DNA of 64,000 nt from Escherichia phage vB_EcoM_NBG2. Shown here piece after piece: positions 1,280-64,000 of this stretch. A model generated the notes under the pieces. It was not told where the DNA came from. It saw only the letters and a list, made by a program, of their open reading frames with translations, and made no database searches. Positions within the stretch are counted from its first letter, which is position 1, and each line of letters begins with the position of its first letter. A program made the position numbers and the translations under genes. Location of the stretch: sequence record NC_054925.1. One strand, given 5' to 3'.

Positions 1280-1322
1280 TTCATTCTCCAAGTTGTTTTC
1301 TGTATCAGTAGTTGATAGTTGT

Positions 1323-1352
1323 ATAGTACCATGGAAGGACAAGGATGTAAAC
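1323..1352 (-). promoter_or_regulatory. T4 early-type promoter (-35 GTTTAC, 18-nt spacer, -10 TACTAT) on minus strand
   Basis: Plus strand shows gtaaac at 1347-1352 and atagta at 1323-1328; same cassette recurs at 4202, 4568, 53471, 62433. Confidence 0.5.
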
Positions 1353-1486
1353 AGTTTTGTGAAAAAAATTTTTAAAAAGTTTTAGGGAATTCTAGGGTCA
1401 GGAGGGGCAATTAAAAGGTAGGATAATATATTATAAAGGGTATAAACTAAATGATGCCTAGAGAGGCCCGGAAAGGCCTAGATACC

Positions 1487-1513
1487 AAAAAGCCCCAACC
1501 TTTCGGTCGGGGC
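1487..1513 (-). terminator. intrinsic terminator: stem GCCCCGACC-GAAA-GGUUGGGGC followed by UUUUU on minus transcript
   Basis: 9-bp stem with one G-U pair plus U5 tract immediately downstream of the 1522 stop. Confidence 0.7.
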
Positions 1514-1521
1514 TAAGAATG

Positions 1522-1995
1522 TTATTTGATTTGTTTAGCAGACCAAATGCGGTCTTTAATAATTTTTTGGATGTCTTCAACATACTCAAGAGAGTGAGCA
1601 TGTGGATTATCTTTGAAACTATAAGCACGAGCTAGTTTTTGGCCTTCAGTTTTGATTACTAAAAGCTCTTTAAGGATAGCTTCATATTTGGAGATAATTC
1701 CTTTAACAATATTTTTTTCTTGTGCAGCTTTAGGATCTGCTTTAGGAGCAGGTTTACCCGAAGCCTTTGCAAAAGCAGCGCCAGTAGCAACTAGACTTTT
1801 CCAGGCCATACTAACCGCATTTCCTGTAAATCCTTCTGCTTTCATGTCGCGAGCAAATTGGAATCGCGATTCGTCAGAAGCATCTTTATAAGAATATTTA
1901 CCCGCTGCAATGGCTGCTTTTGCGACAGCTTGAATTTCGGTGCTAGATGCTTCATTTAACACCGCTTCATTTAAAAATTGAGTATATGATTTCAT
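1522..1995 (-). CDS. internal-protein-like protein with N-terminal capsid targeting sequence (MKSYTQFLNE/A), 157 aa
   Basis: Start moved to Met at 1995 (AGGAAA RBS); N-terminus matches the T4 IP CTS pattern as I recall it; TATAAATA late promoter upstream. Confidence 0.55.
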   Translation of the reverse strand: MKSYTQFLNEAVLNEASSTEIQAVAKAAIAAGKYSYKDASDESRFQFARDMKAEGFTGNAVSMAWKSLVATGAAFAKASGKPAPKADPKAAQEKNIVKGIISKYEAILKELLVIKTEGQKLARAYSFKDNPHAHSLEYVEDIQKIIKDRIWSAKQIK

Positions 1996-2033
1996 CTTAT
2001 TTCCTGTTTTAATTCGTGGATTTAATATACTAA

Positions 2034-2041
2034 TATTTATA
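2034..2041 (-). promoter_or_regulatory. T4 late promoter TATAAATA on minus strand, about 40 nt upstream of the 1995 start
   Basis: Plus strand reads tatttata at 2034-2041. Confidence 0.5.
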
Positions 2042-2043
2042 CT

Positions 2044-2070
2044 AAAAAGCCCCAACCTTTCGGTCGGGGC
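2044..2070 (-). terminator. intrinsic terminator, second identical copy of the 1487-1513 hairpin plus U-tract; ends the tRNA/small-RNA transcription unit
   Basis: 31-nt string aaaaagccccaacctttcggtcggggctaag identical at 1487-1517 and 2044-2074. Confidence 0.7.
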
Positions 2071-2074
2071 TAAG

Positions 2075-2385
2075 CCTTGCGGCAACCTTGTCGGGGTTCC
2101 ACCTGCTAAGGCAAGTGTTTGTACGAAACGCCGGGATTCGAACCCGGTTATTAAGTAGTTGACGCTACTCAATATTTTTAAAAGGCCATATCTCGACCAT
2201 ATCCGAACGTTCCGTCAAAAACGCTACTCGGCTTATGGCAAAGATATTTCCTCGAATCGATAATTCGGTGCGCCGTTTCTGCTGTGATATAAGGGGACAT
2301 TAACAAAACATAAAGATTTATTAATGCCAGTCCTTAAACAGGGAACATCAGTCCGACGACTTGCCGGTAGCGACCCGGCTTCTTG
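2075..2385 (-). ncRNA. candidate small stable RNA(s) or degenerate tRNA-like element downstream of tRNA-Arg
   Basis: No convincing ORF; minus strand carries a tRNA-like T-arm CCGGG-UUCGAAU-CCCGG (plus 2131-2147) without a matching acceptor stem; position corresponds to where T4 encodes small stable RNAs. Confidence 0.3.
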
Positions 2386-2461
2386 TCTGGTCGAGGCAGT
2401 AGGGATCGAACCTACGACCCAGGACTTAGAAGGTCCTTGCTCTTCCTTCTGAGCTATGCCT
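2386..2461 (-). tRNA. tRNA-Arg (anticodon UCU), CCA encoded
   Basis: Manual fold: acceptor CGAGGCA/TGCCTCG, D-stem GCTC/GAGC, anticodon stem AGGAC/GTCCT with loop CTTCTAA, T-arm GTAGG-TTCGATC-CCTAC. Confidence 0.8.
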
Positions 2462-2467
2462 CGTATT

Positions 2468-2542
2468 TGGCGGACGTGATAGGATTCGAACCTATAACCA
2501 ATCGCTTAACAGGCGATCGCTCTGCCATTGAGCTACACATCC
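2468..2542 (-). tRNA. tRNA-Asn (anticodon GUU), CCA encoded
   Basis: Manual fold: acceptor GGATGTG/CACGTCC, D-stem GCTC/GAGC, anticodon stem ATCGC/GCGAT with loop CTGTTAA, T-arm ATAGG-TTCGAAT-CCTAT. Confidence 0.75.
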
Positions 2543-2546
2543 AAAT

Positions 2547-2633
2547 TGGTGGGGAGTGGTGGAGTCGAACCACCCGAGTCGCAATGACAATGAATTTACA
2601 GTCCACACCGCTACCCCTACGGGATAACTCCCC
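2547..2633 (-). tRNA. tRNA-Tyr (anticodon GUA), long variable arm, CCA encoded; D-arm atypical
   Basis: Acceptor GGGGAGT/ACTCCCC, anticodon loop CTGTAAA, variable-arm hairpin GTC-ATTGC-GAC, T-arm GGTGG-TTCGACT-CCACC; D-stem pairing weak. Confidence 0.55.
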
Positions 2634-2642
2634 AAATTAATT

Positions 2643-2717
2643 TGGTGGCCCTGGGTGGAATTGAACCACCATCTGGCGATTATGAGTCGCGTGCTTGAAC
2701 CTTCCAGCTACAGGGCC
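2643..2717 (-). tRNA. tRNA with CAU anticodon (Ile via lysidine, or Met), CCA encoded
   Basis: Acceptor GGCCCTG/CAGGGCC, anticodon loop CTCATAA, T-arm GGTGG-TTCAATT-CCACC. Confidence 0.7.
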
Positions 2718-2719
2718 TT

Positions 2720-2794
2720 GGTGCTGATTGACGGAATCGAACCGCCGACCTTCTCATTACAAGTGAGTTGCTCTACCTACTGAGCTAAATCAGC
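2720..2794 (-). tRNA. tRNA-Thr (anticodon UGU), CCA encoded
   Basis: Acceptor GCTGATT/AATCAGC, D-stem GCTC/GAGC, anticodon loop CTTGTAA, T-arm GGCGG-TTCGATT-CCGTC. Confidence 0.8.
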
Positions 2795-2799
2795 AAAAC

Positions 2800-2889
2800 T
2801 GGCGGAGGCGATAGGATTTGAACCTATGAGTCGCCGGAGCGACTGCCGGTTTTCAAGACCGGTGCATTAAACCACTCTGCCACGCCTCC
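2800..2889 (-). tRNA. tRNA-Ser (anticodon UGA), class II long variable arm, CCA encoded
   Basis: Acceptor GGAGGCG/CGCCTCC, anticodon stem CCGGT/ACCGG with loop CTTGAAA, T-arm ATAGG-TTCAAAT-CCTAT. Confidence 0.85.
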
Positions 2890-2891
2890 AG

Positions 2892-2965
2892 TCTCCATAC
2901 AAGGATTTGAACCTTGGACCTCCTGATCCCAAATCAGGCGCTCTACCAAACTGAGCTACACGGAG
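2892..2965 (-). tRNA. tRNA-Pro (anticodon UGG), no encoded CCA; 2 nt from tRNA-Ser (dimeric precursor arrangement)
   Basis: Acceptor CTCCGTG/TATGGAG with two G-U pairs, D-stem GCTC/GAGC, anticodon stem CCTGA/TCAGG with loop TTTGGGA, T-arm CAAGG-TTCAAAT-CCTTG. Confidence 0.8.
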
Positions 2966-2975
2966 TAAATTAAAT

Positions 2976-3049
<74 letters not shown>

Positions 3050-3054
3050 AAATT

Positions 3055-3141
3055 TGGTGCGAGAAGTGGGACTCGAACCCACAAGGAAATCATTCCGCAG
3101 CATTTTAAGTGCTGTGCCTTTACCAATTTGACCATTCTCGC
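3055..3141 (-). tRNA. tRNA-Leu (anticodon UAA), class II long variable arm, CCA encoded
   Basis: Acceptor GCGAGAA/TTCTCGC, anticodon stem CAGCA/TGCTG with loop CTTAAAA, T-arm GTGGG-TTCGAGT-CCCAC. Confidence 0.85.
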
Positions 3142-3142
3142 G

Positions 3143-3215
3143 CTGGGAATAAAGGACTCGAACCTTTGCATCCTGGAATCAAAATCCAGTGCCTTACCAA
3201 CTTGGCTAATTCCCA
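3143..3215 (-). tRNA. tRNA-Gln (anticodon UUG), no encoded CCA; 1 nt from tRNA-Leu
   Basis: Acceptor TGGGAAT/ATTCCCA, anticodon stem CTGGA/TCCAG with loop TTTTGAT, T-arm AAAGG-TTCGAGT-CCTTT. Confidence 0.8.
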
Positions 3216-3312
3216 ATTATTAACAAAGGCTCTTTAGCAAGAACCCTTGATGATAGAGGGTATTAATCAGTGCGGTATGAGTTAATAATAACAAATAATT
3301 CTTAAAGCATAT

Positions 3313-3606
3313 TTACCATTTATGATAATACATATTTACGATGCATTCAAGACCCAAAGGATTCTTGAAAATATCATATTCAAGAGGACCTTTTTCTGTT
3401 TCAATAAAGAAATCAAAATTTACTGTATTAAATTTACGGTCTTCCTTTACTAATTTAACTTGAGAAGATGAACGGTCAATGTAAACCTTTTCAACTTCAA
3501 AACATGTTAAAATGCCATAATCATCAATCAAGGCTTTAGCTGCTTCTTGATCATATTTATATCCATTTTCAATGGATGATACTTTAGCATAAAGAATCAT
3601 TATCAA
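3313..3606 (-). CDS. hypothetical protein, 97 aa
   Basis: Complete ORF, ATGA start/stop overlap with upstream gene (operon-like packing). Confidence 0.5.
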   Translation of the reverse strand: MIMILYAKVSSIENGYKYDQEAAKALIDDYGILTCFEVEKVYIDRSSSQVKLVKEDRKFNTVNFDFFIETEKGPLEYDIFKNPLGLECIVNMYYHKW

Positions 3607-3986
3607 CCTTCATCAACAATAGTATGAGTATGGGCATTTACAATTTGCCACCAATCAAAGCGATTAGAACCATACATCGGTTTGTTTTCATTTTCTTTGA
3701 TAATATCACGAAGTTCATCTTCAGTAGCGGCTTTCGCGATTAAATCAGCATATCCACCACGAGGATAATAATTATCACCTGCAAAAAGTAAAAAGTTTGG
3801 TTTAATGTTATTGAACTCTTCAAGAGTAATAACTGTTCCTGATGGTAGTTGAACAATCTCTACATATTTATATCCTAATTTTTGAGCAGCATCTACTGCT
3901 TCAAGCAAAGTATCATGAGCCCATCCAATTTGACAACCTGGCTTTTCAGATGGATTAGCCTGATAATCCGCATACACTTTGTACAT
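3603..3986 (-). CDS. hypothetical protein, 127 aa (start moved to internal Met)
   Basis: Track ORF 3603..4025 overlaps the upstream gene; ATG at 3986 preceded by AAGGTGA. Confidence 0.5.
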   Translation of the reverse strand: MYKVYADYQANPSEKPGCQIGWAHDTLLEAVDAAQKLGYKYVEIVQLPSGTVITLEEFNNIKPNFLLFAGDNYYPRGGYADLIAKAATEDELRDIIKENENKPMYGSNRFDWWQIVNAHTHTIVDEG

Positions 3987-3987
3987 T

Positions 3988-4173
3988 CTATTCACCTTTA
4001 GAAATTTTATCCATAACGATAGCAATTAAACCAATTAAAAATGCTACTACAAGTGAAAACACATTTTCTGCTGTAGTCAATAATCCGCATATAAATCCAA
4101 CAAACATTGAAAAACTAAAAGCAGAAGCAGAAATTGCAATAGCAACATTTCGAATTAATTCACAACGTTTCAT
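3988..4173 (-). CDS. small predicted membrane protein, 61 aa, two hydrophobic helices
   Basis: GAGGAG RBS; segments AIAISASAFSFSMFVGFICGLL and VFSLVVAFLIGLIAIV; early-type promoter upstream. Confidence 0.5.
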   Translation of the reverse strand: MKRCELIRNVAIAISASAFSFSMFVGFICGLLTTAENVFSLVVAFLIGLIAIVMDKISKGE

Positions 4174-4201
4174 TTTATTCTCCTCGGTAGTTGATAGGGT
4201 A

Positions 4202-4231
4202 ATAGTATCACAACTAAAACCCTATGTAAAC
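4202..4231 (-). promoter_or_regulatory. T4 early-type promoter (GTTTAC-N18-TACTAT) on minus strand; -10 lies between a 7-bp inverted repeat
   Basis: Plus strand gtaaac 4226-4231, atagta 4202-4207; inverted repeat atagggt / accctat. Confidence 0.5.
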
Positions 4232-4249
4232 AACTTTGTGAAATATTTA

Positions 4250-4537
4250 TTACAAAAGATTTTTAGCAATAATCTTGAGATGTGCCGCAGAAATGTGTTT
4301 AGCTTTAAACAACGCAGTTTCTTCAGCAGGAGAGATAACGATTGTAGCACCATCCTTTTTAGCAGACCACCCATCACCTAGGTAAACAGTACCTTTGATT
4401 TCTTCGCCATCAACCAGACTAATCATTGGTTTACCTTCTCGTCCTTTATTTGCTTTAATAACTTCAGAAGTAAGAGTAGCCTCGGTAATGGTAGAAACCG
4501 GGGTAGTTGTAGAAGTAAATTCTTTAAATGTTTTCAT
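4250..4537 (-). CDS. internal protein I-like head protein with CTS-like N-terminus (MKTFKEF...), 95 aa
   Basis: Same size as T4 IPI and located next to 57B as in T4; N-terminus resembles the CTS; body not recognisably IPI. Confidence 0.6.
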   Translation of the reverse strand: MKTFKEFTSTTTPVSTITEATLTSEVIKANKGREGKPMISLVDGEEIKGTVYLGDGWSAKKDGATIVISPAEETALFKAKHISAAHLKIIAKNLL

Positions 4538-4567
4538 TTTATTTTCCTAATTAATTTTGATGAGGTA

Positions 4568-4597
4568 ATAGTATCACTACCTCATCAACGTGTAAAC
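4568..4597 (-). promoter_or_regulatory. T4 early-type promoter (GTTTAC-N18-TACTAT) on minus strand; -10 sits in the loop of an 11-bp inverted repeat
   Basis: Plus strand gtaaac 4592-4597, atagta 4568-4573; inverted repeat ttgatgaggta / tacctcatcaa. Confidence 0.5.
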
Positions 4598-4609
4598 AAC
4601 TTTGTGAAA

Positions 4610-5306
<697 letters not shown>

Positions 5307-5307
<1 letters not shown>

Positions 5308-6032
5308 TATAGTACCTTTAGTGTATTTTTAATTTTAGAAAAAAGTTCTTCAAGAGAACCATCGTTTGTAATTACTAAATCGCCATCACGAATTGGCAAT
5401 CCAGCTTCTGTAATATGTGTATCATTGGATTTTTGACCAGGACGAACTACATGAATTACTGTAGCACCCATCGCCCTAGCCGCATCCATTTCATGATCTT
5501 GACGAGTATCAGGAACGATATAATAATCATAACCTGGGTTAAATTTATCAAGATAATCTAAAGCAAATAATTTTACCCAATACATGCGGTCGAAGTTATT
5601 AACAATCAAATCCGTACCTAGGGCTTGCATCAGACGACGGACTGACCATTGGTCTTCAATATTATTTATAACGTCAATAATCTTGTTAAATGCTACGGAA
5701 TTAACTGATTCTTTTCCTTCGTCATCAAAAACAAACACGCCTTTAATTGGGCTTTTACTATTAAGATAGCAAAATGCTTGTTCCATAATCGTAATTACTT
5801 CTAATTTAGTCAGATTTAAATTAGTCTCACGATCATAGTCAATTCCTTCAAACTCTTTACGAGTTAAGCAAGGATAGTCAGTGTTTGCTGCGAATACGCC
5901 CCATGCATAAGCCAATGCATCTTTAATAGGACCAGCAAGTTGATATTTAACTGCAGAATAATTATTCATGATAAAATCTGCAGTAGTATCTTTTCCACTA
6001 CGCTTTACACCACTCAAAAAGATTAGTTTCAT
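5307..6032 (-). CDS. 1: deoxynucleoside monophosphate kinase, 241 aa
   Basis: P-loop GVKRSGKDT near N-terminus; size and synteny match T4 gp1. Confidence 0.9.
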
Positions 6033-6081
6033 ATGTTTCTCCTCAAATTTAGTTAAGATTATAACACATGAAACTGAAGCA

Positions 6082-6612
6082 TTAAACTTCTGCTATAATT
6101 TTACCATCTTTTTCTACTTGAAAATACGTATAAGGAATCGTTGCTGTACATACTAAAGCCGGGTCTGAATCTTCCGTGTAGCTAAATTCTACTTCAGACA
6201 GGTCAGAAACCCAAGGCTTATAAAAGTTTATTGACATCACGATTTCAGTTTTACTATTATCTAAAATGTAAAGCGTAATGTATTCAGGACCTGTTTTTTG
6301 GGCAGTATTTTCGCCTGTAAGATAGTTACTAGTTCCTAGCATCCATTCATACATTCCTATCCACGACTTAAGTTCTTCATCAACTATAAATCTCACGATG
6401 AGTGGATCGTACTCAAATGTAACTCCTGGACGCTGTGCTCGGCCTAGTCCAAACGGCCCAGTCACGGTATCAGTAACAGGTATCCTAATTCCCGGAATAG
6501 GAACTGACTGAGCATTTAAAGTAAAAGCAGATGTAGTATTACTATGCGGTATTGATACTACAAAGTTAGTTGTATTTGCTTGGTTAAAAATTTGTTGCAG
6601 AGCTTGCGACAT
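6082..6612 (-). CDS. 3: tail completion / sheath stabiliser gp3, 176 aa (start moved to internal Met)
   Basis: Internal ATG at 6612 with GAGGAA RBS gives the 176 aa I recall for T4 gp3; synteny 1-3-2-4. Confidence 0.7.
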   Translation of the reverse strand: MSQALQQIFNQANTTNFVVSIPHSNTTSAFTLNAQSVPIPGIRIPVTDTVTGPFGLGRAQRPGVTFEYDPLIVRFIVDEELKSWIGMYEWMLGTSNYLTGENTAQKTGPEYITLYILDNSKTEIVMSINFYKPWVSDLSEVEFSYTEDSDPALVCTATIPYTYFQVEKDGKIIAEV

Positions 6613-6718
6613 ATATTCCTCATAATGCTTTATAAATGTTGGTGGTATAATGGGTCTAAGTCCCTTCCATTCAATTCCAATTAGAACAAACAATAGAAAA
6701 GAATGGAAGATAATAGAA

Positions 6719-62072: not shown

Positions 62073-62405
62073 TTATTTTACTAATTTCCAATGCTTCATG
62101 TCAAGTTTGCCAACTTTTTTCATCTTCTCAATTAAGCGTTCGGCACGCTGGCGAGCTGTAACATAATACCATTCACCCAATTCATTTTGTTCAATTTTTC
62201 CAACGATTACTGTATTCAATTCATAAATCCAACCAGTAAAGAAATTATGAACTTGAATTGTAAAGGTGAAATCTGTTCCCATACCTTCTGTTGTTTCTAC
62301 TTCAACAATATCACCTTCAACTGCCATTAAGAACCACATAGTTTCATCATATTTACCATTGAAGCATTTAGTTTTAACTGCAGCGTTCAGATTAATCGTT
62401 TTCAT
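62073..62405 (-). CDS. hypothetical protein, 110 aa
   Basis: AAGGAG RBS; early-type promoter upstream. Confidence 0.5.
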   Translation of the reverse strand: MKTINLNAAVKTKCFNGKYDETMWFLMAVEGDIVEVETTEGMGTDFTFTIQVHNFFTGWIYELNTVIVGKIEQNELGEWYYVTARQRAERLIEKMKKVGKLDMKHWKLVK

Positions 62406-62432
62406 TTTATTCTCCTTTGTTTGTGTAAGATA

Positions 62433-62462
62433 ATACTATCACAAAGGAACCATACTGTAAAC
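62433..62462 (-). promoter_or_regulatory. T4 early-type promoter (GTTTAC-N18-TAGTAT) on minus strand
   Basis: Plus strand gtaaac 62457-62462 within the recurring tgtaaacaactttgtg cassette. Confidence 0.4.
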
Positions 62463-62483
62463 AACTTTGTGCAATCTTTGGAA

Positions 62484-63485: not shown

Positions 63486-63821
63486 TCACTTATAAAGACA
63501 CGGAATAGCTTTATAATGACATGTTACGAATTTTTGTTTAATTTCTTTTGGCTGCTTAAGACCCAGAGCTACAAAAGGATGCGGAACGTTTCGAATTTGA
63601 CCAACTGGAAGAGAAGTCAAATCACCAACTTCGCAGAAACCTTCAGGAACATCAGGACCAACAGAGTGAACTACACACAGTTCAGGAACTTCACCTTGAA
63701 CACGTTTACCGATAATAAGTCCTGATTCTGTAACTTCTTCATCACCGGCTTGCGCAGGTTCAGAAACTAAAATAACATATTCACCGACAGCACGAATTGG
63801 TAGCTGTTGTACTTCAGACAT
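63486..63821 (-). CDS. 31: GroES-like co-chaperonin for capsid protein folding, 111 aa
   Basis: Recognised by sequence and length. Confidence 0.85.
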
Positions 63822-63878
63822 CGTTTTTCCTTTTTGTTAACAGATGAATTAATAATAACAAATAATTCTTAAAGCATT

Positions 63879-64000
63879 TATTTACCAATAAATTGAAGCA
63901 AATGCTCAACTTTCATACCATTAACGGAAATCAATTTGTCAATAGAAAAACCTCGCCATGCACCAAGCTCAACATCAAATACTGGAATCATATCAGTAGA
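63879..64000 (-). CDS. hypothetical protein, C-terminal fragment; gene starts beyond window end
   Basis: Open frame on minus strand ending at a TAA at 63879-63881. Confidence 0.25.

Follow-up and report, generated by a model that had tools for sequence, protein, structure and literature searches.

Three small open reading frames (ORFs) between ipI and the tRNA genes of Escherichia phage vB_EcoM_NBG2 are, with near certainty, the orthologs of T4 trna.4, trna.3 and trna.2, and they share the cassette architecture of their T4 counterparts. These are long-annotated T4 genes that were already known, and not new ones. Taken as a whole, the region is best explained, with somewhat more confidence than doubt on our part, as a coupled accessory early cassette that is headed by a PeSL promoter, ends before a MotA promoter, and acts in host modulation or counter-defense. 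The functional class taken by itself, host modulation or counter-defense, is a tentative assignment that we put forward as a serious possibility. An earlier note on this DNA had described the three ORFs; its observation is confirmed and its interpretation is partly supported. To this our analysis adds the limits of the cassette at the PeSL and middle promoters, the two-domain structure of Trna.3 and its allele swap, and, for the Trna.3 C-terminal domain, the size of the family, its apparent restriction to phages, and its weak association with tRNA clusters.

Gene identity and cassette layout

The window (the whole 64,000-nt stretch of record NC_054925.1 that was analyzed) is a T4-like (Tequatrovirus) segment, and the region lies on its minus strand with the gene order 57A, 57B, ipI, three small ORFs and ten tRNA genes (Table 1). 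When positions 3200-4300 were searched by megablast, 822 phage records matched, 274 of them across most of the query. The T4 reference carries trna.2, trna.3 and trna.4 at the same place, from tRNA-Gln to ipI, in the same order and on the same strand. Amino acid identity to the T4 proteins is 100% for Trna.4, 58% for Trna.3 and 97% for Trna.2. The earlier note had recognized none of the three products, and their identical map position in T4 now gives them names. Both promoters, early and middle, are likewise near-identical in sequence to those of T4; what differs here is the allele of Trna.3 and the tRNA cluster, which comprises 10 tRNAs and is without segB.

Table 1. The cassette, its regulatory elements, protein domains and neighboring genes (window coordinates; T4 accessions are UniProt entries)
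Feature	Position	Strand	Description	T4 entry
57B = Acb1	4610..5065	-	anti-CBASS phosphodiesterase; two genes upstream of cassette	
ipI	4250..4537	-	internal protein I, nuclease inhibitor; own PeSL promoter 4596-4568	
PeSL-type early promoter	4194..4231	-	-35 TTTACA 4230-4225, 17-nt spacer, -10 TACTAT 4207-4202	
trna.4	3988..4173	-	61 aa; predicted two-TM inner-membrane hairpin; RBS GAGGAG 4185-4180	P13322
trna.3	3603..3986	-	127 aa from ATG; acidic soluble, pI 4.7	P13323
Trna.3 variable N-domain	3986-3807	-	aa 1-60; divergent vs T4	
Trna.3 conserved C-domain		-	aa 62-127, ~65 aa; YYPxGG...DWW(Q/H)IVD signature	
trna.2	3313..3600	-	95 aa from ATG (MILYAK...); acidic soluble, pI 4.9	P13324
MotA-type middle promoter	3285..3309	-	TGCTTTA 3309-3303, 12 nt, TATTAT 3290-3285	
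tRNA cluster	2388..3215	-	Gln, Leu, Gly, Pro, Ser, Thr, Met, Tyr, Asn, Arg (ARAGORN, Rfam); without segB	

All three proteins belong to recognized families. Trna.4 matches PHROG 1692 (E 6e-35, full length), Trna.3 matches PHROG 1411 (E 1.6e-55, residues 1-127), and Trna.2 matches PHROG 2023 (E 3e-48, full length); these PHROGs carry no functional assignment. In precomputed Pfam annotation, the homologs of Trna.4, Trna.3 and Trna.2 fall into PF26870 (Phage_T4_Y07D), PF26894 (Phage_T4_Y07C) and PF27001, respectively, which are recent families named after uncharacterized T4 proteins. Searches of all three proteins against a local Pfam copy, NCBIfam, PADLOC and PDB sequences returned nothing past threshold. 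Weak matches to DUF5092, DUF2721, DUF7554 and TusC all fell well under the cut-offs and were set aside, including DUF2721, which one GenBank annotator had used as a label for the 61-aa protein and which scores 11.5 bits against a gathering cut-off of 28.3 (E 0.28). No homolog with a known function was found for Trna.4, Trna.3 or Trna.2, and the T4 homologs are themselves without a settled function. Nor was sequence or structural homology to characterized anti-defense proteins or defense components found for the cassette products.

The earlier description of three tightly packed ORFs with ribosome binding sites, at 3988-4173, 3603-3986 and 3313-3606 on the minus strand, is borne out, and each ORF has its own Shine-Dalgarno sequence. 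Its details change at the third ORF, which is 97 aa when read from a TTG at 3606 and 95 aa when read from an ATG at 3600. The ATG is almost certainly the true start, because T4 and all homologs begin there, with no homolog starting at the TTG, and because a GAAGG ribosome binding site lies 6 nt upstream of the ATG but abuts the TTG. With ATG starts, the start/stop overlaps reported before become gaps of 1 nt (TAG-A-ATG) and 2 nt (TGA-TA-ATG), a packing tight enough to be sufficient for translational coupling. At the orthologous loci of Mosigvirus and a Klebsiella phage, the annotated coding sequences do overlap.

Promoters that delimit the cassette

The cassette is headed by a promoter of the PeSL type. 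The early-type promoter that had been proposed at 4202-4231 stands, since positions 4230-4202 fit the consensus TTTACW-N17-TAYWAT described for T4/PST early promoters (PMC4122927). It carries an extended -10 TG at 4210-4209 and is enclosed by a stem-loop formed by ATAGGGT (4225-4219) and ACCCTAT (4200-4194). A generic sigma-70 scan by itself was not above chance (7 sites vs 7.1 expected). At the orthologous Mosigvirus site the stem reads ATAGGACTA/TAGTCCTAT, and at the Klebsiella phage site it reads AGGTCAT/ATGACC; in both, the sequence is altered and the pairing is kept. An early promoter with a covarying stem-loop is in this way conserved across three genera. Paralogous copies of the element lie at 4532-4615, upstream of ipI, and at 62400-62479. 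The same combination of promoter and stem-loop characterizes the PeSL cassettes of T4-type phages (Arbiol et al. 2010; Comeau et al. 2014), and as in those cassettes, the repeated copies here flank small accessory genes, with ipI deleted exactly between two copies in one variant contig. Unlike the strain-specific ORFans of PeSL cassettes, however, the block headed by this copy is conserved across genera.

At its other end the protein-coding cassette is limited by a MotA-type middle promoter, a perfect match that directly follows the trna.2 stop codon. It lies inside a 44-bp repeat, with a second copy upstream of gene 31 (63844-63887); T4 has the identical promoter, and in the Klebsiella phage it is conserved. 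In T4, most transcription of the tRNA cluster starts at a middle promoter immediately ahead of it, according to the statement in PMC2330249 that cites Broida and Abelson 1985. With a separate middle promoter for the tRNAs, the three ORFs form a distinct early unit. Read-through from the cassette into the tRNAs is possible, and not required; a search for a terminator at the cassette end yielded none that was convincing. The region also holds two TATAAATA octamers.

Published T4 data agree with this timing. In time-resolved omics of T4 infection, trna.2 and trna.3 are classed as early at both the RNA and the protein level, and trna.4 yields early RNA while its protein was not detected (PMC9697503 supplement). 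The small early operon that the earlier note had inferred is upheld by the promoter together with the three early T4 RNAs and the two early proteins, and the genes are expressed during T4 infection.

Conservation and occasional loss

Compared with their orthologs in Mosigvirus PhAPEC2, at a dS of ~0.8-1.5, the genes have dN/dS values of 0.10 (trna.4), 0.39 (trna.3) and 0.20 (trna.2), and all three are under purifying selection. By tblastn, phage records matched number 789 for Trna.4, 762 for Trna.3 and 802 for Trna.2, and the hosts cited in their names include Escherichia, Shigella, Salmonella, Yersinia, Klebsiella, Enterobacter, Serratia, Edwardsiella and Erwinia. The order ip-trna.4-trna.3-trna.2-tRNAs is shared by Tequatrovirus, Mosigvirus and Klebsiella T4-like phages, one of the last carrying an additional stand-alone gene for the Trna.3 C-domain between trna.4 and trna.3. 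Given some 800 phage records and the same order across genera, the trio is a conserved block and not part of a hypervariable slot, as had been supposed; only trna.3 shows allelic replacement. An Rfam search of 3313-4173 matched no family.

The block is not always retained. One Logan contig from a related phage has a 2.07-kb deletion that runs from window position 3691, inside trna.3, to 1622, so that trna.2 and all tRNAs are gone and Trna.3 is fused to a downstream ORF. The same contig is without ipI, with a junction within the shared PeSL arm (a single observation). This deletion indicates that, in some conditions at least, phages can lose the region.

Trna.3 joins a swapping domain to a widespread phage mini-domain

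AlphaFold2 (AF2) models Trna.3 with a pLDDT of 84 as two beta-beta-alpha-beta-beta units, at residues 1-59 and 62-127. An origin of the two units by internal duplication found no support (hhalign probability 0.06; ~3 bits by hmmsearch with a 145-sequence C-domain profile), and no homology between them is detectable. Between the window and T4, the genes flanking trna.3 differ at a dS of 0.02-0.08, whereas trna.3 itself has a dS of 0.98. Nucleotide identity drops abruptly to ~50% exactly at the start of trna.3, stays there across the N-domain (3986-3791), returns to ~80-85% across the C-domain, and is >=90% from ~3640 on. About 270 phage records have the window-type trna.3 allele, and about 450 have alleles that are <60% identical. 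The N-domain of trna.3 has undergone domain-level allelic replacement between otherwise near-identical phages, which is the pattern expected of a specificity-determining surface.

The C-domain carries the motif F-x-G-x2-YYP-x-GG-x2-D ... DWW[Q/H]IVD. An exhaustive profile search with Trna.3 returned 622 clusters (formed at 50% identity) at E <=1e-3, nearly all of which match profile positions 62-127 only; the majority stand alone as proteins of 60-100 aa, with the consensus KRYLLFAGDNYYPSGGWEDLIGSFDTIEEAKELI...FDWWQIVDLETLKIVEEG, and one C-domain protein carries a fused HTH domain. Structural relatives occur both in phages of Staphylococcus and in enterobacterial ones, and when the genomes of bacteria and archaea were scanned with a narrow pattern, only 2 MAG contigs turned up. 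The C-domain family is widespread and, apparently, restricted to phages. Among 39 unrelated (non-T4-like) environmental loci with a stand-alone C-domain gene, 6 have same-strand tRNA genes within 4 kb, a raw count with no proper background rate behind it; at one of them, L022, the gene is embedded in a cluster of 10 tRNAs. Analysis of the neighbors at the 39 loci found no conserved neighboring family, and the association of the C-domain with phage tRNA clusters is weak and unexplained.

Trna.4 is a predicted membrane hairpin

The earlier proposal of a two-helix membrane protein is supported by hydropathy, which shows two hydrophobic segments in the 61-aa product of 3988..4173. Helix 1 (residues ~9-32) is Ala/Ser/Gly-rich, with Kyte-Doolittle values of ~1.6-2.1, and helix 2 (residues ~37-54) reaches 3.0. 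The two are linked by a short five-residue TTAEN loop and flanked by K/R at both ends, and by the positive-inside rule Trna.4 is predicted to form an N-in/C-in membrane hairpin. The N-terminus MKRxELIRN, E36-N37 of the loop and, within helix 2, SLVV.FLIG are invariant among homologs.

Trna.4 resembles T4 Imm and Sp and class II holins in being a small two-helix phage inner-membrane protein. It differs from them in that it has no detectable sequence relationship to them, no holin tail and no lysis-gene context. No Imm, Sp or holin family was matched in Pfam, PHROGs or NCBIfam at E values up to 1. Nor does Trna.4 fit a holin of the class II or pinholin type: the C-terminal tail DKISKGE has a net charge of ~0 and is not a charged tail, transcription is early, the neighbors are ipI and trna.3, there is no linkage to an endolysin, and no holin family matches.

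Leads for Trna.2

Structure prediction and distant homology say little about Trna.2. Its AF2 model, built from a shallow alignment, has a pLDDT of 49 and is unusable, and homology searches found no distant relatives. Experimental work on T4 offers two leads. A CRISPRi-ART screen lists trna.2 among "Semi-Fit" genes without an assigned function, a class that passes the fold-change threshold and does not reach statistical significance. In a pull-down of DRT1, Inh and Trna.2 were the sole T4 proteins enriched with the wild-type protein vs an RT-dead control (PMC13275509). Since this enrichment of Trna.2 could come from an infection arrested at an early/middle stage, it gives a lead but does not prove binding.

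Of 45 early proteins that were screened for toxicity in Mosigvirus AV110, six were inhibitory (gp94, 135, 204, 208, 214 and 263). By gene count the AV110 homologs of trna.2-4 are gp245-247, which may lie outside the 45 screened; that they are not among the six inhibitory genes speaks against strong toxicity and a part in host shutoff of that kind. The toxic early peptide "Emp" of AV110 is a different gene, located next to motA, and is not one of trna.2-4.

What the cassette may do

The cassette adjoins two proven counter-defense genes, Acb1 (57B) and ipI. The product of 57B matches Acb1 in the PDB (7t26, phmmer E 5.6e-62), and PF23474 Acb1 is annotated in an orthologous contig; IPI is 100% identical to T4 IPI (Pfam IPI_T4, E 7e-54). 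The earlier note had stated that this neighborhood in T4 holds internal protein genes and a homing endonuclease and is a hot spot for host-interaction functions. The host-interaction genes are indeed present here, and the homing endonuclease is absent from the tRNA cluster of the window. Counter-defense is favored because the unit is early, apparently coupled, non-enzyme-like, and located beside Acb1 and ipI. Proximity to Acb1 and IPI is weak evidence, however, since unrelated small genes abound in the early regions of T4.

If the favored reading of a host-modulation or counter-defense cassette is correct, its products would bind host or host-defense components stoichiometrically, early in infection. 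We consider them most likely to be stoichiometric binders and not enzymes because they are small, because Trna.2 and Trna.3 are acidic, and because no catalytic family is matched. Trna.4 would work in the inner membrane or at its surface, where it might anchor Trna.2 and Trna.3 or partner with them, and the fast-evolving N-domain of Trna.3 would supply target specificity. Only from their conserved order and tight spacing do we infer that the three products may form a complex. Comparison with the small acidic phage inhibitors T4 Dmd, AcrIF9/AcrIC8 and IPI* gives no sequence similarity to the cassette proteins, and structural scores that do not rise above noise for folds of this small size.

One other way to account for the cassette is that it serves the adjacent phage tRNAs in their maturation, modification, charging, or protection from host anticodon nucleases, and the retention of the order ipI-trna.4-trna.3-trna.2-tRNAs in three genera would fit such a role, as would the C-domain loci with tRNA genes nearby, among them the gene inside the cluster at L022. 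The timing differs, however, with the ORFs under an early PeSL promoter and the tRNAs under a MotA middle promoter. At 33 of the 39 environmental C-domain loci there is no nearby tRNA, nor is there a conserved neighbor family, and the six loci that do have one give a raw count. The proteins resemble no RNA-binding or tRNA-modifying family, and phage tRNA clusters generally lie among small early ORFs, which by itself would produce some co-location. We consider service to the tRNAs unlikely on this evidence. A little less likely still is a more specific form of the counter-defense reading, in which the C-domain belongs to a phage-restricted mini-protein family that binds a universal target, is fused here to a swapping domain, and constitutes a counter-defense module with Trna.4 and Trna.2. 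Candidate targets for the C-domain are a defense-related nucleotide signal or a tRNA/anticodon-nuclease component, the latter because the domain recurs beside phage tRNA clusters.

For the membrane component, the earlier note had suggested superinfection exclusion, host takeover or defense evasion. It is conceivable, if quite improbable, that Trna.4 is the effector, with a superinfection-exclusion or membrane-perturbing activity (Imm/Sp or pinholin-like), and that the soluble proteins are unrelated passengers. The exclusion proteins of T4 are Imm and Sp, and Imm is expressed early, as the RNA of Trna.4 is in T4. Class II holins and pinholins have a moderately hydrophobic first helix and a strongly hydrophobic second one, much like Trna.4, whose moderately hydrophobic, Ala/Ser/Gly-rich TM1, strongly hydrophobic TM2 and predicted N-in/C-in topology, together with its strongly conserved cytoplasmic N-terminus, would suit such an effector. 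Yet no Imm, Sp or holin family matches it up to E 1, its C-terminal tail is not highly charged as that of holins is, exclusion in T4 is already served by Imm and Sp, and the T4 proteome study did not detect the protein; that trna.4 stays coupled to trna.3 and trna.2 across three genera suggests that they act jointly. The notion that the ORFs are non-functional, being chance or decaying frames in a leader with an RNA- or DNA-level role (promoters, recombination cassettes), deserves the least credence of all. Several regulatory elements do occur there (the PeSL, the MotA-type promoter and the two octamers), and the Logan contig from which the 3' part of trna.3, all of trna.2 and the tRNAs are missing suggests that the region is dispensable under some conditions. 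Against this stand dN/dS values well <1 across a large synonymous divergence, hundreds of intact orthologs, the detection of Trna.2 and Trna.3 proteins in T4 infection, and the lack of any Rfam family there. Selection, together with the proteomic evidence, excludes a non-coding reading.

As a finding, three catalogued T4 genes are ordinary, and the residual value of this work is as a pointer. The leads that it offers are the DRT1 pull-down for Trna.2 and, for Trna.3, a widespread phage mini-domain with an allele-swapping partner domain. The cassette is among the better conserved early units without an assigned function in the Tevenvirinae, and a function for it would cover a family that is present in hundreds of phages.

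Repeated promoter cassettes and a deletion variant

We observe three paralogues of a PeSL-type early-promoter cassette (promoter-early stem-loop) of about 80 bp in the window, 77-79% identical to one another and each ending in an RBS and ATGAAA, and ipI is flanked on either side by such a cassette. In a related phage represented by a Logan contig (ERR11570814, L062), which we compared with window 1302-6651, ipI is missing and the deletion junction falls within the shared PeSL arm. A second deletion there, of 2.07 kb (window 3691 to 1622), takes out the 3' end of trna.3, trna.2, and all ten tRNAs, and gives rise to a chimeric protein, P0020; trna.3 is additionally broken into two called ORFs of 39 and 94 aa.

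A 44-bp cassette is likewise present twice in the window, with copies that are 93% identical and that both include a perfect MotA-box middle promoter (TGCTTTA-12-TATTAT). The T4 late-promoter octamer TATAAATA occurs on the coding strand inside both trna.3 and trna.2, in each case as part of GGATATAAATATG, which supplies G-Y-K-Y codons in either protein. This octamer is commoner in the window than expected by chance (22 found versus 9.6 expected).

Coordinates of features (window positions unless a contig is named)
Feature	Position	Strand	Remark
PeSL-type cassette	4168-4248
PeSL-type cassette	4532-4615
PeSL-type cassette	62400-62479
44-bp cassette, copy 1	3277-3318		immediately 5' of tRNA cluster
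44-bp cassette, copy 2	63844-63887		5' of gene 31 (CDS 63486-63821)
Octamer in trna.3	3865-3872	-
Octamer in trna.2	3554-3561	-
Octamer ahead of 157-aa ORF	2041-2034
tRNA cluster	2388-3215		Gln, Leu, Gly, Pro, Ser, Thr, Met, Tyr, Asn, Arg
157-aa ORF 3' of tRNAs	1522-1995	-	PHROG 2280, function unknown
57B	4610-5065	-
C-domain gene, kv_tblp8	L004 2820-3005		61 aa
C-domain gene near tRNAs	L022 3944-4246
C-domain genes near tRNAs	L010; L013; L029; L030; L039

The tRNA cluster and its neighbors

The Trna.3 C-domain also stands alone. Klebsiella phage kv_tblp8 carries such a copy (MYGLFMWSRYYPCGGMGDF...) inserted between its trna.4 and trna.3 orthologues, and in six of 39 unrelated environmental phage loci, by raw count, tRNA genes are found no more than 4 kb from a stand-alone C-domain gene. 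In one of these, L022, the gene is flanked by tRNA-Trp and tRNA-Lys within a 10-tRNA cluster.

The 157-aa ORF on the 3' side of the window's ten tRNAs begins with MKSYTQFLNEAVLNEA, which resembles the capsid-targeting and gp21-cleavage N-terminus of T4 internal proteins, and is preceded by the octamer TATAAATA. The ORF may be an additional internal protein. The tRNA cluster itself lacks the segB homing endonuclease, and has the T2L-type arrangement described in PMC2330249, which differs from that of T4.

Upstream of ipI, 57B frequently carries the label "RNA ligase" in annotations, or is listed there as hypothetical. Judged by its match to PDB 7t26 (E 5.6e-62), 57B is the anti-CBASS phosphodiesterase Acb1. 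With this assignment, Acb1, IPI, and the trna.2-4 cassette are consecutive in the window.
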